A DNA stretch of 64,000 nucleotides, taken from the NCBI GenBank assembly GCA_038245295.1, contig JBBRSP010000025.1, positions 20,562 through 84,561 of the forward strand, written 5' to 3'. Both the position numbers and the translations under genes were made by a program. The DNA is from Candidatus Binatia bacterium (GTDB taxonomy: Bacteria > Desulfobacterota > Binatia > HRBIN30). Of this stretch, positions 833 through 20,625 are shown piece by piece. The notes under the pieces were generated by a model. It worked only from the letters and a program-made list of their open reading frames with translations. It was not told the origin of the DNA and ran no database searches. Positions within the stretch are counted from its first letter, which is position 1. Every line of letters starts with the position of its first letter.

Positions 833-924
833 AGTCCTTCCTTACACCCGAGTGGCGGAGACACAAATGCGTTCAATCGATCGCGAACCCTGGCGTGGGT
901 GATGCCGAGCGCCACGCTCGGGTG

Positions 925-1827
925 TCAGTGCAGCTTGGATCGGACCGCCTCGAGGCGCTTCGCAACCATCGGCGCACACAGCCGGCGAGCCGCCCTGGCC
1001 GCCCGCCGCGTCTGCAGCTTCGCATCGGCTTCCAGCGTTTTCTCGATCTTCGCCAGCCGTGCCGCAGGCAGCGTACCCAGACGTTTCCACTGCTGCGCCC
1101 ACTCGAGGCTCACTGCGGCGTCATGGAACTCCCCCAACCGCTTCTGCGCCTCGGTAAAGTCCTCCAGCAAGCGCGTTCCCGACTTCCCTGCGTTCGGGGC
1201 AACGAGCTCGAGGAGGTAGCGTAGTTGTTTGATCTTGAGACGAACCGGGTGCAGCGCCTCGCTATCGTCGACGCCTTTGTCGATCGCTGCCCTCAGCCGA
1301 TCATACTGTTTACCCAAGGCTTTGCGCGCTTGTTTAAACGCGGAGCGGCCAGCCGCCGGGTGTTTGCCCGCGGCAATCGCCGTTAGCGAAGACAGTAGGC
1401 CCCGATATCGCGCCGAGTCCAACATCGATTGCGCCTGTCTCAACGCGTCGTGGCGACGCTCCTGCTGAGCACGCCGCAGCGCCTCGAACGCCGGTTTTGG
1501 CAATGCCTTCTCCAGCAACCCTGGAAGACGCTCCAACTGAACATCGATGTCGCGCAGCGGCCCCATGCCACGCCCGAGCCAGCGCAGCGCACGACCTAGC
1601 CGTTTGGCATCAAGCGCGTCGACGCCACCGCCGAACACCCGGAGCCCGGAACGCAGTCGTCGTGTCGCCACACGAATCTGATGCGCCCCTTCCGGGTCGC
1701 TGTCGGCGCGTGCGGTCGCCTCGGCCAGGCGCAGGCGTGCCAGCACCGGTGCGACAACCTTGCGCAGAGCGTCGGCACGGGTGTCGCGATTCGACAGCAC
1801 CTCGGCGCTCTGCGTTGGCTGGGTCAT
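925..1827 (-). CDS. CHAD domain protein (polyphosphate-binding)
   Basis: HQIRVATRRLRS, RDIDV, LHPVRLKIKQLRYLLE, QKRLGEFHD; ppx/sixA context. Confidence 0.9.
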   Translation of the reverse strand: MTQPTQSAEVLSNRDTRADALRKVVAPVLARLRLAEATARADSDPEGAHQIRVATRRLRSGLRVFGGGVDALDAKRLGRALRWLGRGMGPLRDIDVQLERLPGLLEKALPKPAFEALRRAQQERRHDALRQAQSMLDSARYRGLLSSLTAIAAGKHPAAGRSAFKQARKALGKQYDRLRAAIDKGVDDSEALHPVRLKIKQLRYLLELVAPNAGKSGTRLLEDFTEAQKRLGEFHDAAVSLEWAQQWKRLGTLPAARLAKIEKTLEADAKLQTRRAARAARRLCAPMVAKRLEAVRSKLH

Positions 1828-2528
1828 TCGGGTTTCGGCTGTTGCAGGTACTCGGCGATGTGGCGCCGCAACTCGTTCTGGATCTTGTCGATCGAACGCC
1901 GTGCATCGACGGTGACGAAGCCGAAGTCGGTCGACAATTGGTTGTACTCACGAATCAAACGTGTCTGGTAGCGGCGGAAACTCTCGAAGATGTCGCTGCC
2001 CAGGGCGAGGTGCATCCCCGACTCCCAATAGTCCATGCCCTTGCCCTCGAGCACGCGCGGGATCAGGTTTTTCAGGTCAATCTTGAGATACAACACGAGA
2101 TCAGGCACCAGCGCCGTACCGAACAGGTCGTAGGTCCATTGGCGCCCGGCGCCCATGACGGCGTTGCGGGCAAACGCCGTATACATGTAACGATCGGCGA
2201 GAACGATGAACCCGGCACGCAGCGCGGGAATGATCTCGTTCTCGAGACGATCGGCGAAGTCAGCGGCGTAGAGCAGACTGAAGGTCGTCACCGTCAACTG
2301 GTGGCCGGCTTTTGCCTCGTTGATCGTTTCCTCGAGCAGCGGCGAACGTGTCCAGCCCGTGCTGGTAACGGCATGCCCCTGCACTTCGAGCCACGACTTC
2401 AGCAGCTCGATCTGCGTGCTGCGACCGACCCCGTCGGTACCCTCGACGACAATCAAGCTGCCGCGCAGCGGCCCAACCTTCAGATAAGGCAGGCCGTAGC
2501 CGAAGAATTTCTTGTCCTGGTCATGCAT
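1824..2528 (-). CDS. Thymidylate-kinase-like protein B (P-loop Lys replaced by Arg)
   Basis: LIVVEGTDGVGRSTQ, IVLADRY, PDLVLYL; start moved to ATG 2528, which overlaps the upstream stop. Confidence 0.85.
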   Translation of the reverse strand: MHDQDKKFFGYGLPYLKVGPLRGSLIVVEGTDGVGRSTQIELLKSWLEVQGHAVTSTGWTRSPLLEETINEAKAGHQLTVTTFSLLYAADFADRLENEIIPALRAGFIVLADRYMYTAFARNAVMGAGRQWTYDLFGTALVPDLVLYLKIDLKNLIPRVLEGKGMDYWESGMHLALGSDIFESFRRYQTRLIREYNQLSTDFGFVTVDARRSIDKIQNELRRHIAEYLQQPKPE

Positions 2529-3228
2529 CGTCTTTGCCCTTACGCCGGCTCGGCAGATCGCGACGGCCCGTGTAATTCTTGAGAACCTGGCTCGCCAAAT
2601 GGCGCACGACTTGCTGCTGCGCGTTGATCGAGCCGGTGGCGTCGACCGCTTGCAGAGCGAACTCATCAACACACTCGTCGTAGCGGCTCAGCACCTGGCC
2701 CTGAAACTTGCGGAAACTCTCGATCGGATCCGTGCTCAGGCGAAGATCCATTCCCGCTTCGTGGTACTTGAGTTTGGCGCGGCCGATCAGCAAGCGATCG
2801 AGCGCCGTCTCGAGCGGCAGGCGGAAGTACATGGCGAGGTCGGGCTTTGGCGCGAAGCCGTAGACGGCGCGCACCCAATCGGGATGGACACCGCGCGCCA
2901 CGTCGCGACTGAATGCCGTGTAGACGTAGCGATCGGCAAGAACGATCATCCCCGCGCGCAGCGGCGGCTCGATCATGTAGGTCAGGCGGTCGGCAAAATC
3001 GACGGCGTGCAGCAAGCAGAAGGTCGACGGCGTCAGGAGATCTTTCTTCTTGCCGCGTTTCATGGACCGTCGCACCAGGGCCGACGAGTTCCACTCGGTG
3101 AAGAAGACACGATACCCCTGCGACACCAGATAGCGGTGCAACAATGCCAGCTGGGTCGACTTTCCGGAGCCGTCGATGCCTTCGACGACGATCAGTTTAC
3201 CGGGATACGGATGCGGCTCTTTCAGCAT
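2521..3228 (-). CDS. Thymidylate-kinase-like protein A
   Basis: GKLIVVEGIDGSGKSTQ P-loop, IVLADRY, PDLAMYF. Confidence 0.88.
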   Translation of the reverse strand: MLKEPHPYPGKLIVVEGIDGSGKSTQLALLHRYLVSQGYRVFFTEWNSSALVRRSMKRGKKKDLLTPSTFCLLHAVDFADRLTYMIEPPLRAGMIVLADRYVYTAFSRDVARGVHPDWVRAVYGFAPKPDLAMYFRLPLETALDRLLIGRAKLKYHEAGMDLRLSTDPIESFRKFQGQVLSRYDECVDEFALQAVDATGSINAQQQVVRHLASQVLKNYTGRRDLPSRRKGKDDA

Positions 3229-4777
3229 GACGTCCTTCTACCTTCGCGATTTCGAACTCGATCTTCGTATCGAGCAGCTCTTCCAGGAGACCGGCACGCC
3301 GCCGCGCCTCCCACATCTCCAACTCGGCAGCGTCGCCATCGGTGTTCAAGCGCAAGACGAGGGCCTTATCCGAGTGGATGACGCTGATGTCATTGACCAC
3401 ACCGTAGTGAGACCGATCAAGACCATCGGCGACTCGCAGCAGCGCGCTGAGAGCTCGCACCGTGCGTCGTCCGGGCTTTGACAAGGCGGAATACCCCGGA
3501 TCGCCGTCGCGTGGCACACCCTTACGGTGGTAGCGCGCCACCAGGCCGATCATTTCGATCTCCTCGCGTTGGAAACCGAGCAGCTCACCGTTGGTGATCA
3601 GGTAGTACGAATGGCGCTGGTGATCGCTGTGGCTGATGTGGTGCCCGACATCGTGCATCAACGCGGCGTATTCCAACAGCTCGGCCGATTCCGGGAAGAG
3701 CCCGAGGAAATCGTGCAGCTGGCCAAACAGCACCAAGGCCAGACGAGCAACGTGCGCCCCGTGTGGCCCGGTCTCACCCAGGTGCCGCGCCAATCGCACC
3801 ACGCTGCGGCGGCGTGGATCCTCAAACCTGTCCGCCTCGTCGATGCTGCTGCCGTGGCGCGCCACGAAGTCCAGCAACACGCCCTCGCGCAACGCCCAGG
3901 TGCAGGCCACCATCCGTTTGGCCCCGGTCGTGCGCAGGACGTACTCGGCCAGACACACACCGGGCACGACGAAGTCGACACGCTTCGTATCCATGCCTTT
4001 GACACGCCCGCGTTCTTCACGATCGGCTTTGATGATCGTACGCCGCACCCGCGCGATGTCTTCGTCGGCGACGGTGTAGTTGTTCAGGGAGCCCTCTGGG
4101 CGATCGGCACGCAGGTAGCCGGCGATCGAAACGATGTTCAGCAACGTGCCCGAGGTGACGACGATGCGCTGCACATTACGCGTCTTGGCAGTCTCCAGAA
4201 TGGTCTTGAGCTGCGTCGCGAAGACGCCTTCCAGTTCCTCCAGAGCACGCGCCGTCGGACGGTCGGCGTCGACATACTTCTCACTGAGGCGCGAAACGCC
4301 GAGCTTGAAGCTTTCCAACGCCACGGCACGATCACCATCATTGACGATCATCTCGACGCTGCCGCCGCCGGCATCGACGATCAGCGTCGGCTCGGTGCGC
4401 AGATCGATGGCGTGGCGCACGCCGAGATGGATGAAACGCGCCTCTTCGCGGCCGGGGATGACTTTCACGCGCAGACCGACTTCATCCTTGATGCGCTGAA
4501 CGAAGTCACCACCGTTGCGCGCTTCACGCACGGCACTGGTTGCCACCGCCACCGTGCGCTGAACGCCGTGACGTTCGGCCAGCTTCTTGAATGTCGAGAG
4601 AGTCTGCACGCCGAGGTTCATGGCGTCGGCGGACAGACGGCCGTTGAGGAGAGAGCGCTGCCCTAGACGAACCATCTCTTTGGCTCGGTCGAGAACCCGC
4701 AAGCGGCCGTCGCGCTCCACCTGCGCCACAACCAGGTGAATCGAGTTGCTGCCAATGTCGATGGCTGCGGCGCGCAT
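3197..4777 (-). CDS. ppx: Exopolyphosphatase Ppx/GppA family with C-terminal HD domain
   Basis: AAIDIGSNSIH, ATSAVREARN, DAGGGSVE, ALREG, MHDVG, LLRVADGLDRSH. Confidence 0.95.
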   Translation of the reverse strand: MRAAAIDIGSNSIHLVVAQVERDGRLRVLDRAKEMVRLGQRSLLNGRLSADAMNLGVQTLSTFKKLAERHGVQRTVAVATSAVREARNGGDFVQRIKDEVGLRVKVIPGREEARFIHLGVRHAIDLRTEPTLIVDAGGGSVEMIVNDGDRAVALESFKLGVSRLSEKYVDADRPTARALEELEGVFATQLKTILETAKTRNVQRIVVTSGTLLNIVSIAGYLRADRPEGSLNNYTVADEDIARVRRTIIKADREERGRVKGMDTKRVDFVVPGVCLAEYVLRTTGAKRMVACTWALREGVLLDFVARHGSSIDEADRFEDPRRRSVVRLARHLGETGPHGAHVARLALVLFGQLHDFLGLFPESAELLEYAALMHDVGHHISHSDHQRHSYYLITNGELLGFQREEIEMIGLVARYHRKGVPRDGDPGYSALSKPGRRTVRALSALLRVADGLDRSHYGVVNDISVIHSDKALVLRLNTDGDAAELEMWEARRRAGLLEELLDTKIEFEIAKVEGRHAERAASVSR

Positions 4778-4831: not shown

Positions 4832-5668
4832 CTACTCGGCTGCGACGCGAACTCGACATGTAACGCCGTTCACCGGTTGGCCTTGCAGATCGGTCGCCTG
4901 GGCGACTGTACAAGGGAAGCTCTCACTTACCGGAGGCATCGTGCCCGACTGACAATCAAACTTCACTTCCTCAAAGTCGGCCGCCGGAATCGACGTCGTG
5001 CCGCCGTCGTAGCTTGTCTCCAACTTCGCATCGGCCGGATTCGCGTCGTCGTCATTGAGCTGGAGAAATCCGTTGACTCCGGTCAGGTCGGTGACACGAT
5101 CATACACGCTGGAATCAGCGCCGGTTCCAGGAATCGAAACGGTGGTCGGATAGCCGAGATTCAGGCTCAAGGTGCCGACCTCGGGGACAGCGCTGACATT
5201 GTAGGCCAGCGTCACCGTCACCTTAAGGTTGATACACGCCGCCGGTGGCGTCGGTGTCGCTGTCGGGACAGGTGTCGAGGTTCGCGTCGGCGTCGGTGTG
5301 AATCGAGCGCCGCATGTCGACAAATCAAAGAGACATCCGATCGAGCAATTCGGATTTTGGCCAACGTATCCGAGCGAGGCGCACGTCTCGCCGTTCAGGT
5401 TGCGGGTGTCGCAGTCTTCGTGGGGATTGCCCGTCGAATTGACATAGGTGTCACCGCAGGTGGCCCTCACACAGGTGCTCAGGCAATCGTCGTTGTCCAG
5501 CAAGTTGCCATCGTCGCATTGTTCGCCGGCGTCGAGGTGTCCATTGCCACACTTTGCAAAATCCGGACTGGAAGCAGCGTCGCTGCACCCGGCCAGCAGG
5601 AGCGCCAGGGACGCCGCGGCAAAAAGACGTGGGACCAAAGCGGCGACCGTGTGGGCATAACTCGACAT
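4832..5668 (-). CDS. Lipoprotein with myxobacterial-type Cys-rich repeats, Pro/Thr linker and C-terminal cohesin-like domain
   Basis: Lipobox LLAGC; CGNGHLDAGEQCDDGN repeat; C-terminal ~130 aa similar to those of the 5695 and 12453 genes. Confidence 0.75.
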   Translation of the reverse strand: MSSYAHTVAALVPRLFAAASLALLLAGCSDAASSPDFAKCGNGHLDAGEQCDDGNLLDNDDCLSTCVRATCGDTYVNSTGNPHEDCDTRNLNGETCASLGYVGQNPNCSIGCLFDLSTCGARFTPTPTRTSTPVPTATPTPPAACINLKVTVTLAYNVSAVPEVGTLSLNLGYPTTVSIPGTGADSSVYDRVTDLTGVNGFLQLNDDDANPADAKLETSYDGGTTSIPAADFEEVKFDCQSGTMPPVSESFPCTVAQATDLQGQPVNGVTCRVRVAAE

Positions 5669-5694
5669 GTCGGCATAGCTCCTTGTCTATCGGC

Positions 5695-6696
5695 TCAGAG
5701 AATCGCCACCGAACAGGTGACGCCTTCAATCGGTTGAAAGTTCGTGCCCGAGGCTTCTTTGACGCTGCAGACAAACTCGGATGGCGACGGAGAAGCAGCG
5801 TTCAAACAGGCATCAAACTTCACATCAAAGACCTTGCCCACCGTAAGCGCGCGATTGCCGGCGATGCCGACGCTGAGCGCGTAGTCGAAGTCGAATGACC
5901 CAGCCAGGAACCCGCTTGGCGTGTTGACAACCGATGTCGCAACCGATTCGGCGTCGCCGGTGCCGGGAATCTGCACCGTGCCATCGGGATACTCCAGGAC
6001 GATCGTCATCGAGGCGATTGTCTTCCCGGCCGGAGGTGTAAACGACACGCTCACGGTTCGCTTTGTTCCGGATGGTGTGCAGGTGATTATCGTGCAATCG
6101 CTCGGACACGTGTCACTCGGCGGGTTGCTTACCGTGTTGCCGTCATCGCAGGTTTCGCCGGCTCCGATGATGCGGTCGCCGCAAACCGCCGAGCTCACCG
6201 TCGTGGCAGTGCGCGTGGCCGTTGCCGTGGGTGGCACCAGCATGGTGGTCGGTGTCGCGGTGGGAACATCAGTTGCCGTGCGGGTGGCGGTTGCCGTCGC
6301 CGGCTCTGTCGTGGATGTCGGCGTCAACGTCGGTGTCGCGGTGGCGACCACTTCGACGGTCGGCGTATCACTCGGGACAACTTCCGGTGTGTTCGTCGGT
6401 GTGGGCGCTTGCGTCGGTGTTTCCGTCCGGATCACGGCAGGACAGCCATTGAGGGCATTGTTTACGCCGGCGATGAGCTCATCGATCGTCACCTCGCCGC
6501 TTTGGTCGTTGTCGAAGACCACACATGCATTCACGCCGATGCTGCCGAGGGCGATGTTCACACCGAGGATCAGCTCGTCGACCGTAACCTCACCGTCTCC
6601 GCCGCAGTCGCCAATGCAGGCGCCACGCGCCGGCGCCGAGGTGGTTGTGAGCACGGCGGCGGCAAACAGAACGGACAGCAGAAGTGAACGATTCAT
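5695..6696 (-). CDS. Secreted protein: dockerin-like domain, Thr/Pro linker, Cys-rich repeat, cohesin-like domain
   Basis: Signal peptide; duplicated Ca-loop GDCGGDGEVTVDEL / DNDQSGEVTIDEL; CGDRIIGAGETCDDGN. Confidence 0.75.
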   Translation of the reverse strand: MNRSLLLSVLFAAAVLTTTSAPARGACIGDCGGDGEVTVDELILGVNIALGSIGVNACVVFDNDQSGEVTIDELIAGVNNALNGCPAVIRTETPTQAPTPTNTPEVVPSDTPTVEVVATATPTLTPTSTTEPATATATRTATDVPTATPTTMLVPPTATATRTATTVSSAVCGDRIIGAGETCDDGNTVSNPPSDTCPSDCTIITCTPSGTKRTVSVSFTPPAGKTIASMTIVLEYPDGTVQIPGTGDAESVATSVVNTPSGFLAGSFDFDYALSVGIAGNRALTVGKVFDVKFDACLNAASPSPSEFVCSVKEASGTNFQPIEGVTCSVAIL

Positions 6697-6709
6697 GGGA
6701 GCTCCTTGC

Positions 6710-9574
6710 CTATTGGTAGGTGTACGAGACGCCCAGCGCGAAGCGGACTCCCGTGCGGTAGCGGCGCTGCAGGTTGTCGCCTTGGGAAAACAGGTAGTTG
6801 TCGTTGAGCAGGTTCTCGATGCCGAGCTTCAGATTGAATGGCGTGCCAAATTCTTCGATTTTGCGCGTCAGGACGAAATCCAACTGATCGCGGCGCTCTT
6901 CGTAGATATCAGGGAGGCCGCTGGCGCCGACCTTGTCGATGCGCCGTTCCGCCGTGTTGTAGAGCAAACGTGCCGTACCGAGCTGCTTGGTCGTGTACTC
7001 CAGACCGGCGTTGACGACGAACGGCGCCTGGCCCTGCAACGCGCGCTTCGTCTCGGTCTGTTGCTGGGCGACACCGAGCGGCACGTTGACGGTGGAGTCG
7101 ACGTACGAAACGTTGGTCGACAAGCTGAGTCCGTCGAGCGACGGAGACAGGAAGTCCAAGCCCTTGCGACCTTCGAACTCGAACCCGAGCAAGTCTCCGT
7201 TGTCGGCGTTGCTGAAGGAGTCGATCAGGCTGGAGCCGTTTTGCACCACGGTTTGCTCGATCGGCTTGTCGAGGTGCTTCTGGAACAAGCTGAATGATAC
7301 GATGTCGCTGCCCGAAAGAAACCATTCCCACCGCAGGTCGAGACTGCGGATCTGAGCCTGCACCAGATCCGGATTGCCTTGCTTCGGACGCAGACCACGC
7401 GCCTCGGGGTACAACACCGGCGACAACTCGCGGAACTCCGGTCGAGCGACCGCCTCACTGTACCCAAAACGAACATTCATGTCCTCGCGCGGGCTGTACA
7501 CGAGGTTGATGCCCGGCAGCGCATCCAGGGTATTCTTCTTGGGGAAGTAGGGGCGTCCGCTCTGATCCGTCGTGTTCAGCGCGATATACGAATATTCGGT
7601 GCGTACCCCGGCATTCAGGCGCACGGCGTGTTCGCGCTGCCCCTGGTCGTTGCGAATTCCGGGGAAGAGCGGGAGATCGAACTGCCCATAACCGGCGGCA
7701 ATCTCATGAGTGGCCTTGAAGGTTTCGCCGGGCAGCGTCTCTTCCTTGAAGTCGATGCCACGGCCAAAGCCGATGTTCTCCGGTGCGAGGATCTGTTCCG
7801 TCGGTTCCAAAAGAAGCCCCGGCGGAATGAACTCGGTGTGGCTGAGCTGGTACTGGAAGCGGCGCAGTGAAAAGTCGCGGTCGCGATAGGCGAACGACGG
7901 GCCGAACTTGAACTTCGCCAACATTCCGTCCCACAACTCGGTGTACGGCATCGTGACCTTGAAGGGCACGGTGAAATCAACAGCGGAATCGGTGAGTGTC
8001 TCGTTCAGATTGGCATAGAACCGTGTGCCTCCGGAGCCATCGTTCGAGTACGATCCGTAAGGCGTTTGATCGATCGATTCACGCGTGATGATGCGCGTGT
8101 CCGGCTGATCGCTGGTGGTCTCCGAGAACGCCGTGCGCCAACTCACATCGACCAGCGAGAAGTGATGGTCGCCGGCGAGCTGCCCGAAGGCGAGAAGATC
8201 TTCCTTAAACGTTAGCTTGGTTGTTTGGCGTAATCCCGTCGAGTTCGAACACGCTCCGTTGCCGCATGTTCCGGTGCCGACGGCGACCTCGTCGGTGCTG
8301 TTACGGTTGACGAAGCTGCGCAGGGCGAATTTGTGGTCGTCGGAGAGGTGGTAGGCCGACGTCAGCACTCCACCGAGACGCGTCTCGAAGGTGTCGAAGT
8401 CGTAGGCGAAGTCGTCGTTCTTGAGGATCTCGCCCTGCCCACTCGTGTTGGCGTTGATGAACTGTCGCTCGAGTTGATGATTCCTGGTCTTGTAATTCGT
8501 GCCGTAGATCCCAGACAGCGACGCACCGATTGGGCCCCATTGATTGCCCGCCGAGAAGTTGATGCCGATCCCCGGCACCGCCGACTGCGTGCTTGGCGTC
8601 CAGATATCTTTCAGGGATTGTCCATATGCCTGGCGCTGTGCCGGCGCACCGGCCTGAAGACGATCGGGAAAATTGCTCGGCAGGGCACGCGACGCGGCGC
8701 CGAAGCCGAAATACTCCTCGGTGCCTCCCGCGTGGTACGTCCGGAAGGTCTTGAAGGTGGTTTGCGGGTTGTACTCGGTGTTGAGGCCGATGTTCAACAT
8801 CGGGCTGTCGGGGTGATCGCGCAGACTGATGCTGGCAAGACCGCCCGAGAAATCTCCCGGCAGATCCGGGCTGTAACTTTTCAGGAGCGAAATGGATTCG
8901 ATGAAGCTGGCTGGAAAGAGGTCGAGCGGCACGACGCGGCGTTCCGGGTCCGTACTCGGCAACCGGCTGCCGTTCAGCAAGGCGCTGGTGTAGCGCTCGT
9001 TGAGACCACGCACGACGATGAACTTCGAATCTTTGACGGTAACCGCAGGGACGCGAGCCATCACGTCACCGGCGGTCGAGCCGGTGGATTTCTTGATTGT
9101 TTCGGCGCTGATGTTGTCGCTGACGACGGCGGCGCTCTTGCGCTGAATCATCTGCGTCGCCTCGGCAGCCTTGTCGGCCTGCGCAACAACTTCGACGACC
9201 TGCATCGCCCCTTGTCCTTGCGGGGCCAGGGCGGTGTCGGTCGTGGCTGTCTGCGCCGATTGCACGACAACGTTCTGGATTCGGGTTCCTTGATAGAGCG
9301 GAGCGAAGAAGCGCACCTCGTAGCGACCCGGCGGCAAGCTCACTTTAAACTTGCCGTCGAGGTCGGTGCGGATCTTCTTGCCGGTACCGATCACCTCGAC
9401 ACCCGCATCGATGATCGGTTCGCCGCTCGCTTTATCGATGACCTTGCCGCCAATCGCGCCCGGCGCTGCTGCGGCCGTGTCGGGTGTCTGGGCCGAGGTG
9501 ATGCCCCGCCAGCCAATGATGGTCACACAAACTAGAGCGACGATCATCGCTGCGCTCGCCCGATTGATTCTCAT
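6710..9574 (-). CDS. TonB-dependent receptor with N-terminal carboxypeptidase-regulatory-like domain
   Basis: GKVIDKASGEPI, plug VRGLNERY...LDLFP, RPEFREL, GNPDL, C-terminal GVSYTYQ; GAGGAAG RBS before ATG 9574. Confidence 0.93.
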   Translation of the reverse strand: MRINRASAAMIVALVCVTIIGWRGITSAQTPDTAAAAPGAIGGKVIDKASGEPIIDAGVEVIGTGKKIRTDLDGKFKVSLPPGRYEVRFFAPLYQGTRIQNVVVQSAQTATTDTALAPQGQGAMQVVEVVAQADKAAEATQMIQRKSAAVVSDNISAETIKKSTGSTAGDVMARVPAVTVKDSKFIVVRGLNERYTSALLNGSRLPSTDPERRVVPLDLFPASFIESISLLKSYSPDLPGDFSGGLASISLRDHPDSPMLNIGLNTEYNPQTTFKTFRTYHAGGTEEYFGFGAASRALPSNFPDRLQAGAPAQRQAYGQSLKDIWTPSTQSAVPGIGINFSAGNQWGPIGASLSGIYGTNYKTRNHQLERQFINANTSGQGEILKNDDFAYDFDTFETRLGGVLTSAYHLSDDHKFALRSFVNRNSTDEVAVGTGTCGNGACSNSTGLRQTTKLTFKEDLLAFGQLAGDHHFSLVDVSWRTAFSETTSDQPDTRIITRESIDQTPYGSYSNDGSGGTRFYANLNETLTDSAVDFTVPFKVTMPYTELWDGMLAKFKFGPSFAYRDRDFSLRRFQYQLSHTEFIPPGLLLEPTEQILAPENIGFGRGIDFKEETLPGETFKATHEIAAGYGQFDLPLFPGIRNDQGQREHAVRLNAGVRTEYSYIALNTTDQSGRPYFPKKNTLDALPGINLVYSPREDMNVRFGYSEAVARPEFRELSPVLYPEARGLRPKQGNPDLVQAQIRSLDLRWEWFLSGSDIVSFSLFQKHLDKPIEQTVVQNGSSLIDSFSNADNGDLLGFEFEGRKGLDFLSPSLDGLSLSTNVSYVDSTVNVPLGVAQQQTETKRALQGQAPFVVNAGLEYTTKQLGTARLLYNTAERRIDKVGASGLPDIYEERRDQLDFVLTRKIEEFGTPFNLKLGIENLLNDNYLFSQGDNLQRRYRTGVRFALGVSYTYQ

Positions 9575-9644
9575 GCACCACTTCCTCATTTTCGAAACTG
9601 CCCAAGCGGGCACCGCCGTCAGCATCGGTCGTCCGACGCCGAGA

Positions 9645-9700
9645 TCAATACCGATGGGGCGTGCGGATTCGGTTACGGCGACGTTAACATTCGATGACAG
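9645..9700 (-). promoter_or_regulatory. Pho-box-like array plus -10 element, TBDR promoter
   Basis: Minus strand GTCAT-n6-TTAAC-n6-GTAAC-n6-CGCAC, then 10 nt, then TATTGA. Confidence 0.6.
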
Positions 9701-9756
9701 CGCCCATGCCTCTATTGAGGGATCGTGCCGCGATACGTAACCGCGGCCGATGACAC

Positions 9757-10290
9757 TCAGCCACCCATGAAGGAAACAAATTTGAAGCGGCCGTGGATTT
9801 CGACGATCGAGCCCGTCACGACCTCGACCTCCGCGCCGCTCGGATCGGTGGCCGTAATGCTCAATTTTTCGTGAGCGACGTAGCCCGCATATTCCTTGAG
9901 ACCTTTGCGGAAGGCCACCGATGTGCGCTTCAGGGTCTGCCCACCCCAGCGCCCCAGCAGATCGGTCAACGAATACCGGCTCTTGGTGTCCAACAACTGC
10001 CAGTAGTAGCGGCTCGTCTTGTCGTCGAACTGGCGCAACGGCTTTCCCTTGCCGGCACTGCCAGGGATGATGATGCGACGATACTCTTGTTCGGTCACCC
10101 GCAGAGCATCGATCCGCTTCCAATCCTTCGCTTCAACGCCGAGGAGGAACTCGTCGACCAGAGCATCGATGGATGAGTAGGCACCCTTGAGCTCGAATGA
10201 GCTCGGCTTTGCGTGAGCCGCGCCCTTGGCGAAAGTCGGCGGCGCGGCAAAGGTGATCAAGAGCAGCGTGGCAACGGCGATACGCAACAT
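9757..10290 (-). CDS. Exported hypothetical protein
   Basis: Signal peptide MLRIAVATLLLITFAAPPTFA; co-oriented within the cluster. Confidence 0.7.
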   Translation of the reverse strand: MLRIAVATLLLITFAAPPTFAKGAAHAKPSSFELKGAYSSIDALVDEFLLGVEAKDWKRIDALRVTEQEYRRIIIPGSAGKGKPLRQFDDKTSRYYWQLLDTKSRYSLTDLLGRWGGQTLKRTSVAFRKGLKEYAGYVAHEKLSITATDPSGAEVEVVTGSIVEIHGRFKFVSFMGG

Positions 10291-10315
10291 GGAATGGATT
10301 CCTTGCAGAAACACA

Positions 10316-10412
10316 CCCGCCTTCGCCCCCGCCGTGACCCTCGCCTGCGTTGATCTGGAATCACGAAGATTCCGGCAACGCAGGCGGAGGCACGGGTGGG
10401 GGCGAAGGCGGG
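10316..10412. other. ~97-nt intergenic imperfect hairpin
   Basis: CCCGCCTTCGCCCCC / GGGGGCGAAGGCGGG outer stem, GCCTGCGTTG / CAACGCAGGC middle stem, GGAATC / GATTCC inner stem. Confidence 0.75.
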
Positions 10413-10431
10413 ATGGGATACAGTAACTCTG

Positions 10432-12402
10432 TTACTGGGTTACGTAGCTGATCCAGCCACCGGGGGTCTGCGTCCAGTCAGTGCCGTTCGGATCGAGAGC
10501 GCCCATGTAGTCGGTGCTGTCGAAGAAGCTCGACATGCTGGCGCCGCAGTCGAATCCGGTGTTCATCATGGCAGCCGGATCGTCGGCCACCAACGAAGCG
10601 TTGGTGGGGACGAAGCTGACCGGCGGCCACGTCGGACCAGCCTGGATTCCCGGGTTGTAGGCCGGGTCGTTGGCCACCGCGTTCTCGAAGACGCGCAGCG
10701 TCGGATCGGCAGTCAGCAGAGCATTCCACTCCACCGAGTTGCAGCCGGCGCCGGTGTTGTTGCCGCCGGTCTTGTTGACCGCGTGTGCAATGCCACTCGC
10801 GCCGTTGTTGTAGAAGAGCGAGTTGCGGATGATCAGGTTCTGGCTGAGGTTACAGTCGCTGAAGCCGCCAGGCTGGCCGGCGTCGGGACAATCAGGGTTG
10901 CCCGTGGTGCAGGCCTGACCGACGTTCGTGCCCGTGGCACACACCTTACCGGTGTCGGAAACCAGCGTGAACGGATTCGCCGGGCTCGTGCAGGCGGCAA
11001 CGCCGTCTGTACGAGGCGTCGCGGGGGCCGTGTTACACGCACCCAAACAGGCGTGAGTCGAGGTTGCCGAGTCACGCAATTGGAGGGCGGACGTCTGCAT
11101 GTTGGTGATGATCGTCTTGGCAATGCGGCCGGCGGTGCCGCGGCGTAGGAACGCGCCGACCCACACGCCACCGGTCGGGTGCGTGCCCTGGCCGCGTGAA
11201 CCGACAACCGTCATGTTGCAGAACTGTGGGACCGACAGGGCGAGATTGTTGAAACCGTTCTCGTTGTTGTCACCCTCGAAGCCGTTGTTGCCCTGCGCAT
11301 CGAGGTTGCCGAGGAACTGCGCCGAAGCACCGTACTGCAGCTTGATGTCGCTGCCGAGTTGCCAGTCGAAGTTGTCGTCACGGTTGGCCGTGGCAACGAA
11401 GTACTTCTCACGGATCGTTCCGCCGAACCACTCGAAGCCGTCGTCGAGACCCATGTGTGCTTGGAGGTAGGTAAACTTGGTCTTGGCACCTAGCGCATTC
11501 TGCGTCAGCACGTTGAGCTCGTTGTCGGGTCCGAGTTCGTTACCGGCGAACTCGATGCGCGTGTAGCGCATGAGGCCGCTGGTGTCGTCGCAATTGGCCG
11601 TACCGCCGGCGGGGCCGCCGGTGGCCGGGCTGCATTGCACGCCACCGCCGAAGAGGACGCCATTGAGACCTTCCGAGGTTGCCTGACCGCCGGTCACGTT
11701 GACGCGCGAACAGCCTTGGAAGGACAGACCGCCCCAGTCGCCTGAGCTGCGCGATCCGACCGGCTGGTCACTGGTGAAAACGATCGGTTGGGTCGGCGTT
11801 CCGGACGCGTTGATACGTGCCGAGAACCCGGCGCCGGGGCTCGCGCAGTTGGCGGCTGAGCGGAAGACCAGCGCCGACGGGGTGAGAGCACCCTGCACGC
11901 CCTTGACGACGGCGCCAGGACGCACCGTCAGAACAACGCCCGGCGAGACGAAAACTGTTCCGCGGACGAAGTATTCGCAGTTCGAAAGGACGCGATTCGA
12001 AGTGATGTCGCCGTCGGCGGCGTCGAGGACGCTACCGCACGGCACGGTCGGGCCCTGCGAGGCACAGATCGGCACAACGTTTTTGCCAGGACCGCCGCCG
12101 AGGAGCGGGATTTCGTTGATCAGGAGAATGGCGTCGGCCGTGGTGATCGCGCCGTCTTGGTTCAGGTCGCCACAGTTGAGAATGCCAAGGCCGCCGCACA
12201 AGGGGTTGCAGACGGTGGGGTTGGGGTTCGCGGCCGGGCTCGTGCGCGTCCCGTTGCAGGCGAGGATGGCGCCGACGTCTGCCGTCGTTACCGTGCTGCT
12301 GCCGTTGACGTCGCCGTTGGTACACGCGGCGTGGCCTTTCGCGGCAAAACCGAAGATGCATGCCGCCGCCAAGGCGGACCACATCTGATGTCGAAGCTTC
12401 AT
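10432..12402 (-). CDS. Secreted protein: N-terminal dockerin-like domain plus beta-helix-like domain of the TBDR-associated family (GDWGGL...DDGFEWFGG)
   Basis: Signal peptide; GDVNGSSTVTTAD / GDLNQDGAITTAD; PIVFTS, GDWGGL, EFAG...NELN, DDGFEWFGGT, DDNFDW, GFEGDNN; AAGGAG RBS. Confidence 0.8.
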   Translation of the reverse strand: MKLRHQMWSALAAACIFGFAAKGHAACTNGDVNGSSTVTTADVGAILACNGTRTSPAANPNPTVCNPLCGGLGILNCGDLNQDGAITTADAILLINEIPLLGGGPGKNVVPICASQGPTVPCGSVLDAADGDITSNRVLSNCEYFVRGTVFVSPGVVLTVRPGAVVKGVQGALTPSALVFRSAANCASPGAGFSARINASGTPTQPIVFTSDQPVGSRSSGDWGGLSFQGCSRVNVTGGQATSEGLNGVLFGGGVQCSPATGGPAGGTANCDDTSGLMRYTRIEFAGNELGPDNELNVLTQNALGAKTKFTYLQAHMGLDDGFEWFGGTIREKYFVATANRDDNFDWQLGSDIKLQYGASAQFLGNLDAQGNNGFEGDNNENGFNNLALSVPQFCNMTVVGSRGQGTHPTGGVWVGAFLRRGTAGRIAKTIITNMQTSALQLRDSATSTHACLGACNTAPATPRTDGVAACTSPANPFTLVSDTGKVCATGTNVGQACTTGNPDCPDAGQPGGFSDCNLSQNLIIRNSLFYNNGASGIAHAVNKTGGNNTGAGCNSVEWNALLTADPTLRVFENAVANDPAYNPGIQAGPTWPPVSFVPTNASLVADDPAAMMNTGFDCGASMSSFFDSTDYMGALDPNGTDWTQTPGGWISYVTQ

Positions 12403-12452
12403 GCTTGTTCTCCTTCTGACTGGGTTTGTGTCGACCAGACTGTGGTCCAGCA

Positions 12453-14051
12453 TTACGGTTCGGTAACGTTGATGCTGCAAGTTACGCCGTCGACTTCGTT
12501 GGCGAACTCGTCGAGCGCCGACAGAACCGTGCACGTCGTACGGCTCGACTGCGTGACGCAGTCTTCACCCGGAGGGCAGGCCGCATCGCCGGGCTCGCCG
12601 CACTCTTGCCACTGGCTGACGCTACAGACGTCGTGGCGCGGTACGCATTCTTCGCTCTGCGTGCAAACACCACCCTCGCCGGGTCCAGTACAGTCGGCAT
12701 TCACGCTACAGGCGCTGTTGTCGCCCACGCAGTGCTTCGGCGCACACGTCGGGCAGACACACTTCTGGAGGAGGCCGGGAAGTGGCCCCGAGGCCGGGCA
12801 TTGCGAATCCAGCGTGCAGAAAGAGTTTGCGCTGTTGGCTGTACCGCCCTCAGAGAGCTGCAAGCAGCGCTGGGCGCACTGCGAAGCAACGGTACAAGCC
12901 TGACTGGTGGTGACGCTGCACGTCGACATCGCCAGGGGCTGGCAGGTGTCGAGCTTCAGCTGGAACAGCGCGCCACTGGTGAAGGGCGGCGAGAAGGCAA
13001 GATTGACGTCCGTGTGTCCGTCCTTGTCGTTGGCGTTAACGAAGGCGCCGCCCGGCGTCATGACAACGGCCGATTGCACGGCCGGGTCAACACCGTTCTC
13101 AGGCACACCCGACTGGAACTTCGGGTAGTTGACGCGGACGTCGACACCGCCGAGTTGGACCGGCGAGCTCAACGTAACCGCAACCGTACGTGCCGCCGGG
13201 GTCGCCGACGCGCCGCAATCCTTTGCCGGATAGACCGACAGAGCCAGGTTCTTCGCGTTCGCGAGGGCCGCTTCGGTTACGCAAGTCGGCAACGTGTCGC
13301 ACGAACCGACGGCCGCGCCATTGGGGTAGCCGGTGATCAGGTTGGGCGCCGTGCCGCACTTGGCGGTGATCAGGGTCTGGGCCGCCGTCTTGGTACTCTG
13401 CACGGTGGGCGCGGTGTCAACCAGACAATCGGTGGGCGTCCGCTCCAAACCATGGAAGTCCGCCAAAGTCGCCGCTGTATCCGCTGTCTTCTGGCAGCTC
13501 GTGGCCGCCTTGAGCATCGCATTGGTGACATTCTGACGCGCCTTGGAGATGGCCTTGAGGCAATTGATGGCGACCTTGTCGCCATTGAGATCTTTACCGC
13601 CGAGCGCGAAGTGGGCGCTGGTGTTCAACACCTCATTGATGTTGTCGTACGTCTCCGACGTCTGACCACTCGGATAGTTGTCGAGGGTCTCCGCCGTGGA
13701 GGCAGCGGCGCACTTTGGCGCCGGTCCGGATACCAGCTTCACATCCGTGAGGTTTTGCGACTTGTCGTACTTGCCCCCGTCAATGATGCTGAAGGGGAAA
13801 GTGCCGACGCCATTGCATATGTCGCTCTCGACCGACACCTTGTTTGCCAGCGTGTGGCACTTGTCCTGGCTCGTCATGCCCGTTTTGACGACCCGCGACA
13901 GCTCCAAGCCGACGCTATTGCGGCAGCTTTTGTTAAGGTTGAGATCCTGCGCCAGCACTGGCCTTGTCGAGCCAACCGCCAACGCAAGCATGGATGCGGC
14001 GGCTACCGCAAAGCGGCTGCCGACTGCCCCCATCGTTTGCTTATCTCCCAT
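12453..14051 (-). CDS. Secreted Cys-rich protein with a C-terminal cohesin-like domain split by a Cys-rich insertion
   Basis: Signal peptide; AAAGGAG RBS; TVAVTL...VNYP...P...G...LKLDTC [insert] CTVLSALD...DGVTCSI. Confidence 0.75.
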   Translation of the reverse strand: MGDKQTMGAVGSRFAVAAASMLALAVGSTRPVLAQDLNLNKSCRNSVGLELSRVVKTGMTSQDKCHTLANKVSVESDICNGVGTFPFSIIDGGKYDKSQNLTDVKLVSGPAPKCAAASTAETLDNYPSGQTSETYDNINEVLNTSAHFALGGKDLNGDKVAINCLKAISKARQNVTNAMLKAATSCQKTADTAATLADFHGLERTPTDCLVDTAPTVQSTKTAAQTLITAKCGTAPNLITGYPNGAAVGSCDTLPTCVTEAALANAKNLALSVYPAKDCGASATPAARTVAVTLSSPVQLGGVDVRVNYPKFQSGVPENGVDPAVQSAVVMTPGGAFVNANDKDGHTDVNLAFSPPFTSGALFQLKLDTCQPLAMSTCSVTTSQACTVASQCAQRCLQLSEGGTANSANSFCTLDSQCPASGPLPGLLQKCVCPTCAPKHCVGDNSACSVNADCTGPGEGGVCTQSEECVPRHDVCSVSQWQECGEPGDAACPPGEDCVTQSSRTTCTVLSALDEFANEVDGVTCSINVTEP

Positions 14052-14093
14052 TCTGTTGCTCCTTTCAGTCTGCGGAAAAGTGTGTGGTGCCGC

Positions 14094-14149
14094 ATGATAC
14101 GCGGCGCGTGTGACCGGGTGATGGACGCAATGCGACGATTCGATGAACT
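14094..14149 (-). promoter_or_regulatory. Pho-box-like array plus -10 element at the head of the surface-protein operon
   Basis: Minus strand TTCAT-n6-GTCGC-n6-TCCAT-n6-GTCAC, then 10 nt, then TATCAT. Confidence 0.62.
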
Positions 14150-14369
14150 GCGACACTGAACCGCCCCGGACGACGGCCCGGGACCCGCTGTCATATTCAT
14201 GGAGCCGGCAGAATCTCGCGCCGTGGACGGTTGTTGTTGGCGGCGGAGCCGGTCGTTACGTTATGCGAGGTTGATGTTCACAGAAATTTCACCCGCGACG
14301 GCAACGCAACCAGCTAGTTCTCGTCGCGCTGCGGCAACGCCGGGGCAAAAATATGGAGGATGCGCAAGA

Positions 14370-14735
14370 ATGACCGACTCAGCAGCACCGCGATTATTTC
14401 GCCATGCCACCGATGTGGAAGTGTTTTCGCCGGGACAAGTGGTGTTTCACGATGGCGACCAGGGCGATGCAATGTACGGCATCAAAGAGGGAACTCTCGA
14501 AGTCCTTGTTCACGATCAGGTCGTCGATACGGTGGGTCCGGGCGGGTTCGTTGGCGAAATGGCGCTGCTCGAGCACGCGCCACGTAGCGCCACGGTCGTG
14601 GCGAAAACGGACTGTCAATTGGTGAAGATCGACGAGAAGCGCTTCCTCTTCATGGTACAGCAGACCCCATTCTTCGCGCTCGAGATGCTCCGCGTGTTGG
14701 CGCGGCGTCTGCGGGCGACGAACGAGCGTGTCTGA
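14370..14735 (+). CDS. Stand-alone cyclic-nucleotide-binding domain protein
   Basis: VFHDGDQGDAMY, GFVGEMALLEHAPRSATVVA; GGAGGA RBS. Confidence 0.9.
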   Translation: MTDSAAPRLFRHATDVEVFSPGQVVFHDGDQGDAMYGIKEGTLEVLVHDQVVDTVGPGGFVGEMALLEHAPRSATVVAKTDCQLVKIDEKRFLFMVQQTPFFALEMLRVLARRLRATNERV

Positions 14736-14782: not shown

Positions 14783-15688
14783 TCAGCGCGGCGCCGTGCA
14801 GCCGCTCAGGGCGATGTTCACCGCGCTGATGATGTCCGTGATATCGATGTCTCCCGAAGCGTCCACATCACCGGCCACACAGGTCGAGTAGGCCCCCTCC
14901 CCAAGCGCGACGCGCACCAGCTTGATCAATTCATCGATCGTGACCTGACCGCTCCCATCACAATCGCCGGCGCAGACTCGAGGAGTCGGCGTGGCTGTCG
15001 CGGTTGCTGCCAATGTCGGCGTCGCCGTGGATTTCACCGACGGTGTCGGCGTCGCGGTCGGTGTCTCGGACGGCGACGCGATCGATGTCTCCGTTGGTGT
15101 CTCCGTCGGTGCGGCTTCGGCCGGGATCACCTGAACCTCGAACGTGGTGCTGGCCGCCTTATCACCGATGATGCTGCCGGTGTGGTTGGTGCTATTGCCG
15201 GCGCCGTAGAGAATGTACGTCCCCGTTGCCGCAGGGGCCTGCCAGGTGAAGTTCCAAGCAGCAACGCCATTCGCGTCGTTCAGCTTGCCCCCCGGCTGGC
15301 CGTGCGGCGGCGGCGCGTGCGTCAGCTCGCCATCGATCAGGATTTCCTGCTCGCCCTCGATCGTTACCAACTCGCCACCATCAGCAGAGACATCGAGCCC
15401 CGCCGCTACCTGCGTGGCCGGTGCCTGCGACTGGACGACAAAGCGAAACGTAGCCGTCGCCCCGGCCACTACGTGCTCGGGGCCTTCGAAAGACACGAGC
15501 GGAGCGACGGTGGTGGGACGGTAGACATTGTGACACGCCGTGCAGATCGCACCTTCGCCGACTGTAGCGGCGTTGCCGGAGTAGCCGGCAATCCCTTCCG
15601 CAAAGGCAAACGCGCCGGTCGGTCGAATCAGCAATCCCACCAGAGCGAGCACGCCGGAAAGACAAACAAGACCAGCTCGCGAGCACAT
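14783..15688 (-). CDS. Secreted Reeler-like protein with CxxCH motif and C-terminal dockerin-like domain
   Basis: CTACH; ELTH...WNFTWQAP...LYGAGNSTN; CAGDCDGSGQVTIDEL / GDVDASGDIDITD. Confidence 0.72.
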   Translation of the reverse strand: MCSRAGLVCLSGVLALVGLLIRPTGAFAFAEGIAGYSGNAATVGEGAICTACHNVYRPTTVAPLVSFEGPEHVVAGATATFRFVVQSQAPATQVAAGLDVSADGGELVTIEGEQEILIDGELTHAPPPHGQPGGKLNDANGVAAWNFTWQAPAATGTYILYGAGNSTNHTGSIIGDKAASTTFEVQVIPAEAAPTETPTETSIASPSETPTATPTPSVKSTATPTLAATATATPTPRVCAGDCDGSGQVTIDELIKLVRVALGEGAYSTCVAGDVDASGDIDITDIISAVNIALSGCTAPR

Positions 15689-15838
15689 ACAGAAACCTCC
15701 GTCCCCCCGGACGCGCGGGTCTGCTTAGGGCTTGCCTGCTGGTTGGTCAAAAGAAGACTTCACGACAGCGCGATGACGGGACCAAGTCACCGTATCGCAA
15801 TCAGCGTATTGCCGGCTGGCGGGTCGTGGATCCCATCG

Positions 15839-15867
15839 CGGAGGGCGCCACGGAGTGGCGCCCTCCG
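15839..15867. repeat. Perfect 13-bp hairpin, REP-like; related copy at 54897-54921
   Basis: CGGAGGGCGCCAC-GGA-GTGGCGCCCTCCG. Confidence 0.7.
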
Positions 15868-15906
15868 ATTGGAGACCTCGGCGAGCGTGGATGCCGAATT
15901 GAAAAA

Positions 15907-17622
15907 CTACCGTCTCGAACCCGGACACGATGGATTCACCACCGGCAAGGACCCACCGTTGATGCGCACCGCGCCGAAGGTGCTGCCCTCGAGGCGAATC
16001 TGATCGGCAACGCTGCTGCCGAGTACCTGCGCGAAGCCGGTGGCGTAGCCGCAGAAGCCGTCGGCCGAAGTGGCTTTGCCGATAAGATGGAACTCGCCGA
16101 GTTGCAGGAACGGATCGTCGAGCAACGGGAACGACGGGCCTGGCACCGGCTGCATGCCAAGGCTGGCATCGAAGCTACCGTCGGCCGCAACAACGACATT
16201 GGGCGCCGACCATGCCGTTCCGACGGGCTCCTTCGTCATCGCGTCGAGCGGCTGCAGGGAGAGATCCAGAGTCGCTCCATTCAATGCGACACTGGCGCGC
16301 AGGTACAATGACTGCGCCGGCCAGATCACCGGCGCCAAGACCAGATAGTGCTCGCCAGAAATTGCAAAGTTCGCATTGCCCGGCGGCAATGGTGGTGGGA
16401 TACAGGCGCGCTTCGCGGGCGGATGCGTGCAGGTGGTGGGTGCTTGATCAAAGTCGATTGTCGCCAGCCAGATGTCGCTTGGCGTGAACTGCCCCTCCAA
16501 CCAAGGGATATCACGGTCGACGTGACTGCTGTACCACGACAACAGAGATGTGCTGGCGCTGAGCGGCACAACCGCGGTGTACGCGGTGTCTCCCGAGCTC
16601 TTGAGGTCCTCGATCTCACACACTTCGATCGGCGCCGCCGGATCGCTGAGATCGCCGCGCAGTTCGTACGCCGTCGTGCGCTTGTACGTACACGGCAGAT
16701 GTTTGCGGGCGAAGACGAAACTGCGCGTCTGCGTACCGTTGGGACGCAGCACCCACGTCGGACCGTCCAGTCGTGCTTCGATGCGCCGGCCGCACTCCCA
16801 CGTGGTGAACGGCTCGTGCGCCGTGCAGATGGCGGTCTGCCCATCGGCGATGATGTCTTGATTGTCGAGGCGCACCAGCGACACGGCGATCTCGCTATTG
16901 GCACCGAAGAACTGCAACTCCGCTTCACTCGGAACATCGCGCGGCGAGCTGATGATGACGCTGCGCTTCTGCCACGTTACGCCGTCGTCGGAGGCGAAAA
17001 ACCCGACCTTGCTGTCGCCGTCATTGTAGCCCGTCGCAAACACCGTCGTGCGGGGGATGCCGCCATCACTGTAGGTGCGTTTGGTGAAGCGCCAGAAGCC
17101 CCAATAGGTCTCGTTGCCACCGGCGGTAACGTCGGTGAATGTCTTCTCGGGCAACGACCACGTGTGGCCGCCGTCCGTCGACTCGGCGCGCACCGTCCAC
17201 GCCTCGCCGAAGAGATCGCGGTAATGCGCCCCCGGAACACGACTGATGCAATAGAGGAAGAGCCGGCCACCCATCTCCACCAGTTTCGGATCGCGGATGT
17301 CACGCCCGCCCGGCAGCATGCTGCCGCTCACTTCGCTGATCTTGGTGAACGACTTGCCGTTGTCCGTCGATTCGAAGACGTTGATGTGAGCCCGCGCCGA
17401 ACCGGTCTGACCCGTCTCGCCGCCGCGGAAGACGAGCAGAATGCGCTCGCCGAGCTTGATCATCTCGGTATTCTCGCTGTGTAAGCCGTCGGAGTAGACA
17501 ATGCGCTGTTTGCTGACAAAGCCCGTCGCAGCGGCGCTGCCGCCTGGGCTTTCACCGTCGTCACCACACCCCGCGGCCACGAGCACTGCACACAAGAACA
17601 AAAGCAGTTGTACGCGTGTCAT
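15907..17622 (-). CDS. Lipoprotein with BNR/Asp-box beta-propeller (sialidase-like fold)
   Basis: Lipobox VAAGC; Asp-boxes STDNGKSF, STDGGHTW, SDDGVTW; DIRDPKL. Confidence 0.75.
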   Translation of the reverse strand: MTRVQLLLFLCAVLVAAGCGDDGESPGGSAAATGFVSKQRIVYSDGLHSENTEMIKLGERILLVFRGGETGQTGSARAHINVFESTDNGKSFTKISEVSGSMLPGGRDIRDPKLVEMGGRLFLYCISRVPGAHYRDLFGEAWTVRAESTDGGHTWSLPEKTFTDVTAGGNETYWGFWRFTKRTYSDGGIPRTTVFATGYNDGDSKVGFFASDDGVTWQKRSVIISSPRDVPSEAELQFFGANSEIAVSLVRLDNQDIIADGQTAICTAHEPFTTWECGRRIEARLDGPTWVLRPNGTQTRSFVFARKHLPCTYKRTTAYELRGDLSDPAAPIEVCEIEDLKSSGDTAYTAVVPLSASTSLLSWYSSHVDRDIPWLEGQFTPSDIWLATIDFDQAPTTCTHPPAKRACIPPPLPPGNANFAISGEHYLVLAPVIWPAQSLYLRASVALNGATLDLSLQPLDAMTKEPVGTAWSAPNVVVAADGSFDASLGMQPVPGPSFPLLDDPFLQLGEFHLIGKATSADGFCGYATGFAQVLGSSVADQIRLEGSTFGAVRINGGSLPVVNPSCPGSRR

Positions 17623-17677
17623 TGTGGATCCTCAGAGACCACAGCGGCAGGGTGACTTCCAGATCGCCGAACGACCT

Positions 17678-17884
17678 TCAGAGCAGGGTGAGTCCCCGGT
17701 CGGTCAACCAGTACTCGCCGTCCGCGAGCCGTGCCAGGATGCCCTTTTTCACCAGGGCTCGGGTGGCTACCAAACGTTCTTCCGTGTGGAGAAGTGCCCC
17801 GGCGATCTGCTGGAATCGGACCTGTGGAACGAAAGCTTGATCGAAGATGCGCAGGATCGCGCGTTCCTGGGCCGTGAGAACCAT
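17678..17884 (-). CDS. Small hypothetical protein (winged-helix-like)
   Basis: MVLTAQERAILRIF...LVKKGIL...YWLTDRG; GGGAG RBS; fills the intergenic gap. Confidence 0.55.
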   Translation of the reverse strand: MVLTAQERAILRIFDQAFVPQVRFQQIAGALLHTEERLVATRALVKKGILARLADGEYWLTDRGLTLL

Positions 17885-17934
17885 CGAACCACTCCCCTTC
17901 CAGCGACGCGAGTCGGCCTTGCTTCGTCTAAAAA

Positions 17935-19581: not shown

Positions 19582-19671
19582 GGGCGCATACCGTAACATC
19601 TTGCCCCCGCCGCTGAGTGAACTCTCGATGAATCTTTGGCGAAGCCTCTTGGCCGCGTCTCCAACCGTCCG

Positions 19672-20557: not shown

Positions 20558-20625
20558 AGGTCGGGGTGACAAAATACGGCACCGAGAAAATCTTCGCCCG
20601 CCGACAAGATTTGGAACGTTTGCAA

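Follow-up and report, generated by a model that had tools for sequence, protein, structure and literature searches.

Candidate cohesin–dockerin attachment of a TonB-dependent receptor partner at a putatively Pho-controlled locus of Candidatus Binatia

A 64,000-nucleotide stretch of a Candidatus Binatia bacterium genome (assembly GCA_038245295.1, contig JBBRSP010000025.1; the whole stretch is referred to below as the window) contains six genes for envelope proteins. They encode a TonB-dependent receptor, a beta-helix protein (D), a small protein (U) and three proteins (A, B and E) that end in a common domain, X, with a predicted cohesin fold. We propose, with a probability of roughly 0.6, that this locus is an uptake module for phosphate starvation in which the dockerin-like domain of D binds locus-linked X at the cell surface and so replaces the lipid anchor of many of D's homologues. 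The coupling of X to the dockerin of D across the class is support beyond an earlier preliminary description of the locus; the predicted fold of X, the conserved gene cluster and the putative Pho boxes also speak for the proposal. The features of the locus are as follows.

12453-14051, minus: gene E, 532 residues; signal peptide, Cys-containing N-terminal region of no known family, C-terminal X
~12456-13220, minus: domain X of E; predicted cohesin fold, interrupted by a Cys-rich insert of 125 residues at 12546-12920
14110-14148, minus: Pho-box-like site before E; four half-sites, 11-bp spacing
10432-12402, minus: gene D, 656 residues; signal peptide, dockerin-like domain, right-handed beta-helix
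12112-12327, minus: D-type dockerin-like domain of D, residues 26-97
9757-10290, minus: gene U, 177 residues; signal-peptide-like N-terminus, no known family
9672-9699, minus: Pho-box-like site before the receptor; three half-sites, 11-bp spacing
6710-9574, minus: TonB-dependent receptor; N-terminal carboxypeptidase-regulatory-like domain, plug, barrel; start at 9574 or 9547
5695-6696, minus: gene B, 333 residues; signal peptide, dockerin-like domain, Thr-rich linker, Cys-rich acidic repeat, X; predicted adaptor
6442-6621, minus: dockerin-like domain of B, generic Binatia type, residues 26-85
5698-6084, minus: domain X of B, C-terminal
4832-5668, minus: gene A, 278 residues; lipobox, Cys-rich acidic repeats (TIGR02232), Pro/Thr linker, X; predicted lipid anchor
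5585-5599, minus: lipobox LLAGC of A, residues 24-28
4835-5236, minus: domain X of A, C-terminal

Domain X accompanies the dockerin of D

We surveyed 301 genomes of the class (X threshold 1e-12). D was found in 73 of them and X in 72, and 217 had neither. X is present in all 60 genomes with a dockerin-bearing D (two of which were classed by eye, one being frameshifted) compared with 1 of the 13 whose D is dockerin-less. When 41 genomes were compared, D and X occurred in the same 25. The coupling is also seen within single genomes: G566 and G464 have two D copies each, and X genes neighbour only the dockerin-bearing copy. Relatives of D across named bacterial genomes, of which the best 80 of 650 were kept, gave 79 wider loci. 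Four of these have X, and it is the same four, and no others, that have a D-type dockerin. Generic Binatia dockerins do not track X, and the X-less relatives G013, G015, G021 and G031 have 42–57 matches each.

In G523 a tandem domain is fused directly to the beta-helix; in G691 it is joined instead to X, in a gene next to that of the receptor (72%, 216 residues). This swap, seen for one of the two N-terminal domain types tested, fits a linker role.

Dockerin-less variants of D are found at L177-L180, L186 and L188, and at L181-L185. In the dockerin's place they have N-termini of two types of ~250–300 residues without a family assignment, or a longer region resembling a second beta-helix unit. 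Genomes G450 and G479 (loci L163, L164, L168, L169) have no D and carry X on other secreted proteins. One of these combines a D-type dockerin with X; in that family, dockerin and X may work for a different cargo.

Domain X has a predicted cohesin fold

The C-termini of A, B and E are one domain of ~128 residues with 30–33% identity and 21 invariant columns, as the preliminary description had noticed for the genes at 4832, 5695 and 12453. A profile built from the three copies matches only A, B and E among the 62,861 stop-to-stop open reading frames (ORFs) of the genome, so that their likeness is not due to chance. The X of B was modelled (alignment of 78 sequences) with a predicted local distance difference test (pLDDT) score of 97.6. 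When this model was compared with 48,161 chains by VIA, ranks 1–21 were all cohesin or cellulosome entries, with Z of 10.5–7.8, root-mean-square deviations of 2.7–4.1 and 108–119 aligned residues, and the first non-cohesin fold followed at Z 7.0. Cohesin or cellulosome entries likewise made up 38 of the 40 matches listed by Foldseek. The cohesin likeness that the preliminary description had proposed, with a structure comparison as its check, is thus borne out at the level of the model.

Sequence searches gave far less. A Pfam scan found no PF00963 (cohesin) match in A, B or E, and comparison of X with the sequences of solved structures gave no PDB match below E 2.4; the best one, LptE at that value, was rejected. 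One cohesin that Pfam does recognise in this genome is weakly matched by the X profile (E 0.001). By its predicted structure X is a Pfam-invisible cohesin clade, and a remote one, because Pfam profiles do not recognise it as a cohesin. Its profile matches ~1,000 clusters at 50% identity. When it was run against 401 genomes of the phylum, three were matched, all within the class, and class genomes with X hold 1–9 copies.

Across 325 X domains, conservation is seen on two neighbouring strands at residues that alternate with those of the hydrophobic core. In B numbering these residues are T27 (60%), L/F29 (60%), N64 (67%), D65 (95%), A69 (62%) and R71 (67%). This two-strand face corresponds, we presume, to the dockerin-binding face of cohesins. 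A conserved exposed motif, N-D-x-D-Y-A-L-R, was also found. Two groups or more can be told apart among the domains.

Two types of dockerin-like domains

B and D both begin with duplicated Ca-loop-plus-helix motifs, in line with the dockerin-like N-termini proposed for them earlier. In D the Pfam Dockerin_1 cut-off is passed narrowly (23.1 vs 22.9 bits), Asp 31, 42, 79 and 90 are invariant in 74 of 74 sequences, and the model has helices at residues 40–48 and 88–97. The motif of B was read from sequence alone: B has no PF00404 match above the cut-off, with only EF-hand families below it, and two relatives of B bear a precomputed PF00404 label.

The dockerin of B is of a generic Binatia type that comprises 121 ORFs in this genome and mostly has I/V-D-E at loop positions 10–12. 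In the D type the first repeat has x-A/G-D here, and the second repeat varies more. There is little cross-scoring between the two profiles: D goes unreported by the generic one, as B does by that of D. By these sequences the two dockerin types may be orthogonal. A complex prediction for the X of B with the dockerin of D, one of six pairings, scored 0.23 against a mark of 0.32, which speaks neither for binding nor against it.

Elsewhere in the genome there are 19 Pfam cohesin matches. One of the proteins concerned has a tail that resembles MYXO-CTERM, though at 17 bits it does not reach the cut-off of 20. Multi-cohesin proteins are among them (e.g. C21:56979-59993 and C12:33298-35220), and together with the generic dockerins these separate cohesins may form a class-wide surface display system.

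The gene cluster is conserved in two units

The locus consists of six minus-strand ORFs within 4832-14051, read in the order E, D, U, receptor, B, A. Start codons were trimmed to 14051 for E, 12402 for D, probably 10290 for U, and near 9574 or 9547 for the receptor; clear ribosome-binding sites precede E, D, A and B, and the starts of U and the receptor are our choice. The six co-oriented genes described earlier are confirmed, though as two units, E-D-U and receptor-B-A, each with its own Pho-box-like array. In 20 related loci, which were picked from the 24 relatives having a D match, the two units are divergent 19 times; here they lie head to tail. A single six-gene operon was rejected. The lipobox LLAGC of A and the lack of one in D were both seen as first described.

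The synteny check that had been called for showed a conserved gene cluster. In all 20 related loci, D carries both signal peptide and dockerin and is followed by U. Nineteen loci have the receptor, and the other has a fragment of it at a contig end. An X gene lies directly upstream of D in most loci, and a B-type protein (generic dockerin plus X) follows the receptor in most. exbB-like genes are found in 18 of the 20, pstS in 9, phoU in 4 and ppx in 1. In this genome, contig C2 has tonB-exbB-exbD-exbD, a putative porin (a label taken from relatives only), pstSCAB, phoU and phoB/phoR-like genes.

U also stands beside D in two Acidobacteriota loci. Atlas look-ups yielded no function for U (unnamed clusters only, 0.94) or for the N-terminus of E (best score 0.83).

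D resembles phosphate-induced receptor partners

The model of D is a right-handed beta-helix (pLDDT 87.0; beta-helix matches with Z up to 22.4). Foldseek gave no match for D at E ≤ 0.001, nor did comparison with the sequences of solved structures give any, and PF28492 is a precomputed label only. D has many invariant acidic residues and conserved Asp/Glu/Arg residues. A receptor-like neighbour stands beside D in 71 of the 79 wider loci. A crude lipobox pattern matches in 31 of the 75 X-less loci; other homologues bear type IX secretion system (T9SS) tails (PF18962 labels). In Flavobacterium fontis (L106) a lipoprotein 36% identical to D over 305 columns follows a receptor, with phoB- and phoR-like genes opposite. 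By sequence and layout this locus appears to match the described phosphate-induced pair Fjoh_0545/Fjoh_0546.

In Flavobacterium, Fjoh_0545/Fjoh_0546 are reported as strongly phosphate-induced and part of a PhoBR operon (PMC8115612), and Cc0171/ElpS of Caulobacter as a phosphate-induced relative of the receptor-partner pair (PMC2996285). Fjoh_0545/0546, BT4055/BT4056 and Caulobacter ElpS are grouped together in 10.1101/2023.03.17.533168, where receptors adjoining a pectin-lyase-fold partner of the BT4055/BT4056 kind are reported from 621 genera. Like these partners, D is a beta-helix encoded beside a TonB-dependent receptor; unlike them, described as lipoproteins, it lacks a lipobox and has an N-terminal dockerin instead, and several cohesin-fold proteins and U accompany it. 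The part of receptor partner that the preliminary description gave to D thus agrees with its beta-helix, its neighbours and the phosphate induction of its homologues.

Pho-type control is predicted at the locus

A motif with 11-bp periodicity precedes the receptor in the 18 relatives examined, weakly in one. A matrix trained on these 18, this genome being left out, placed the site at 9699 first among 13.26 million positions (29.6 bits, the next one at 19.0). A half-site model was then built from 17 sites, leaving out L039, the lowest-scoring of the 18. With three repeats it ranked the porin-pstS promoter 1st, the receptor promoter 3rd and the tonB promoter 7th among the same 13.26 million positions; the site before E came 10th with four repeats and was weak (rank 319) with three. 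The promoter regions scored were chosen by us, and the ranks are genome-wide. A regular expression for the E. coli-type box found 5 sites in 20 regions, none of them in the window. Pho control of the locus, as a prediction from promoter sequences, is well supported, because the promoters of porin-pstS, the receptor, tonB and E all come among the first 10 positions under a model made from relatives only. The Pho-like control suspected earlier fits with these 11-bp repeats, which also stand before pstS and tonB.

Proposed mechanism and alternatives

At low phosphate, PhoB would turn on E-D-U, receptor-B-A, tonB-exbB-exbD and porin-pstSCAB. Sec would carry the proteins over the inner membrane, and the surface would possibly be reached via a type II secretion system (a type II secretin is encoded in the genome). 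There D would dock on X with Ca2+, X being offered in three ways, by the lipid anchor A, by the adaptor B and by E, and the generic dockerin of B would bind the general cohesin scaffolds of the cell. Over the receptor D would act as a lid, its conserved Asp/Glu/Arg residues binding an anionic phosphorus source or cleaving it, and TonB would drive import of this source through the receptor.

A number of observations weigh against docking of D on X. X is only 7–20% identical to solved cohesins, nothing was found with it by Foldseek at E ≤ 0.001 (best 1.3e-3), and a shared cohesin fold, here a predicted one, shows no function for X. In the dockerin of D, the residues putatively used for recognition differ greatly between sequences. 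X occurs without a D match in 11 of the 301 genomes and therefore has other uses, or these assemblies are incomplete. Nine of the 12 genomes in which D has no dockerin and X is missing belong to two families, so that independent events are few and a p-value for the association over the 301 genomes overstates it. Weak X-like matches (E 1e-8 to 1e-9) are present in at least two genomes with a dockerin-less D, and at L177 an X gene adjoins a dockerin-less D, as the lone exception. Membership of D in the BT4056/Fjoh_0546/ElpS family is likely and comes from synteny, fold and a congeneric homologue rather than from the named sequences. Finally, in four related loci, all of one genus, the lipoprotein is without X. 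From the scaffold of lipoprotein anchor, adaptor and cargo envisaged in the preliminary description, the domains stand, and the fixed chain is weakened by these four lipoproteins and the generic dockerin of B. The sequences of the same four loci suggest that lipid and dockerin anchors are exchangeable, because their dockerin-plus-X protein groups with the X of A (as does that of L025; FastTree support 0.985, 67 sequences).

X could instead be a cohesin-fold C-terminal domain for sorting, secretion or self-assembly that binds no dockerin. The dockerin-like domains would then stabilise their proteins via Ca or bind otherwise, and X and dockerin would co-occur as members of one inherited gene cluster. 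The position of X speaks for such a role and against docking, since 263 of the 325 X domains finish ≤5 residues from the C-terminus, as sorting domains do. So do the fusion of X to many unrelated N-terminal domains, its presence in the 11 genomes without D, and a large excess of plugs, the 121 dockerin-like ORFs outnumbering the 3 X and 19 Pfam cohesin matches. However, X is gone beside D where the dockerin of D is replaced, even between two copies in one genome, and structure comparison puts cohesins first rather than sorting domains. Moreover, X is found in tandem and internally as in scaffoldins: 51 of 325 lie >20 residues from the protein end, and proteins elsewhere have up to three, though A, B and E have one each. 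We regard the sorting role as unlikely.

Lower still we place a promiscuous X meant mainly for generic dockerins, a phosphate-induced hub that would gather around the receptor many of the ~120 tagged proteins of the cell, with D as one client. The B-type proteins that follow the receptor in most related loci could chain, several X per locus and up to nine per genome are more than one cargo needs, and the groups of X could differ in specificity. Yet generic dockerins abound in X-less genomes, separate Pfam cohesins are available for them here, and the two dockerin profiles hardly recognise each other's members. There is, to our mind, only a slight chance that X binds the beta-helix, U or the outer loops of the receptor directly, the X proteins being extra lids or substrate-binding subunits. 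The conserved exposed motif of X and the adjacency of receptor and B in related loci would agree with this, but receptor and beta-helix are found without X in 75 of the 79 sampled loci and in the dockerin-less Binatia loci, and X tracks the dockerin, not the beta-helix.

Docking of D on X could be part of something larger. A little short of even odds, in our estimate, is a class-wide Gram-negative cohesin–dockerin display with at least two orthogonal specificities, in which the phosphate locus would be a PhoB-induced sub-scaffold whose cohesin clade, X, captures the lid by a private dockerin and whose adaptors plug into the general scaffold. Dozens to >100 dockerin-tagged proteins per Binatia genome would set the scale of such a display.

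Neighbouring genes

On both sides of the locus lie genes that may bear on phosphate, of which the main ones are listed below.

338-4777: cluster downstream of A with ppx, two dTMP-kinase-like genes, CHAD and a His-phosphatase
14783-15688: choice-of-anchor V protein with a generic dockerin
15907-17622: BNR-repeat protein
17935-19599: phospholipase C-like phosphoesterase

The tie to a polyphosphate operon, proposed earlier from the position of the locus, is not upheld. ppx is present at 1 of 20 related and 3 of 79 wider loci, no box precedes it, and a functional link was rejected; a search for ppk1 (PF02503), which did not extend to ppk2, found no match in this 96.6% complete genome.

Further genes in 14783-24486 fit phosphate scavenging, and a phospholipid methyltransferase, an MFS transporter and a PhyH dioxygenase are also encoded there. 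A Pho-box-like site at 19644 (rank 28) lies at the phosphoesterase gene. Two others, at 44884 (minus) and 46308 (plus), are near the divergent ORFs 38235-46190 (minus) and 46247-48175 (plus). The former, of 2,651 residues, has CehA/McbA metallohydrolase-like and ExeM/NucH nuclease-like regions, and the latter is a PstS-like/OmpA fusion. Because of the site at 44884, the true start of the 2,651-residue gene is suggested to lie inside the listed ORF. A stand-alone cyclic-nucleotide (cNMP)-binding protein (14199-14735, plus) is divergent from E; a homologue stands beside ppx in one locus only, L021, which is the closest of the related loci.

Discussion

The locus shares with cellulosomes the predicted cohesin fold, the duplicated Ca-loop dockerin motif, anchor, adaptor and cargo layouts, and two perhaps orthogonal dockerin types. 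It differs from them in its diderm host, its disulfide-rich domains and its mostly single C-terminal cohesins, as well as in its cargo, a transporter partner, and its Pho-type control. No glycoside hydrolase family match was obtained in the family scan of the six proteins. A multi-cohesin scaffoldin with dockerin-bearing glycoside hydrolases, by which cellulosomes are defined, is thus absent from the locus.

Cohesin and dockerin modules in diderms with no role in cellulose use are reported for the planctosome, whose model includes anchor and adaptor proteins, and for adhesins of syntrophic sulfate reducers (PMC6461901, PMC10553843); further non-cellulosomal modules are given in PMC11557425. 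Those systems are proposed for peptidases or adhesion, and in the accessible text of the reports they have no link to a TonB receptor or to phosphate starvation. Our literature search, which covered few subscription papers, returned no paper on Binatota dockerins or Binatia cohesins and no union of a receptor lid with a cohesin–dockerin pair. The view that nothing like this locus had been described therefore stands for that union and falls for the receptor-plus-beta-helix pair, which was known. Both halves, the receptor-lid pair and the non-cellulosomal cohesin–dockerin module, are known; their proposed joining appears to be new.

If docking of D on X is confirmed, D would be the first TonB-transporter lid attached by a cohesin–dockerin bond instead of a lipid. 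One cargo family would then use interchangeable tethers (lipid, T9SS tail or dockerin), which bears on how lids are displayed outside Bacteroidota, a question raised in 10.1101/2023.03.17.533168. The small, disulfide-stabilised and divergent modules would also be candidate orthogonal pairs for designer scaffolds. For this uncultured class, it would mean that cohesin–dockerin assembly extends from polymer-degrading complexes to phosphate-controlled transport across the outer membrane.

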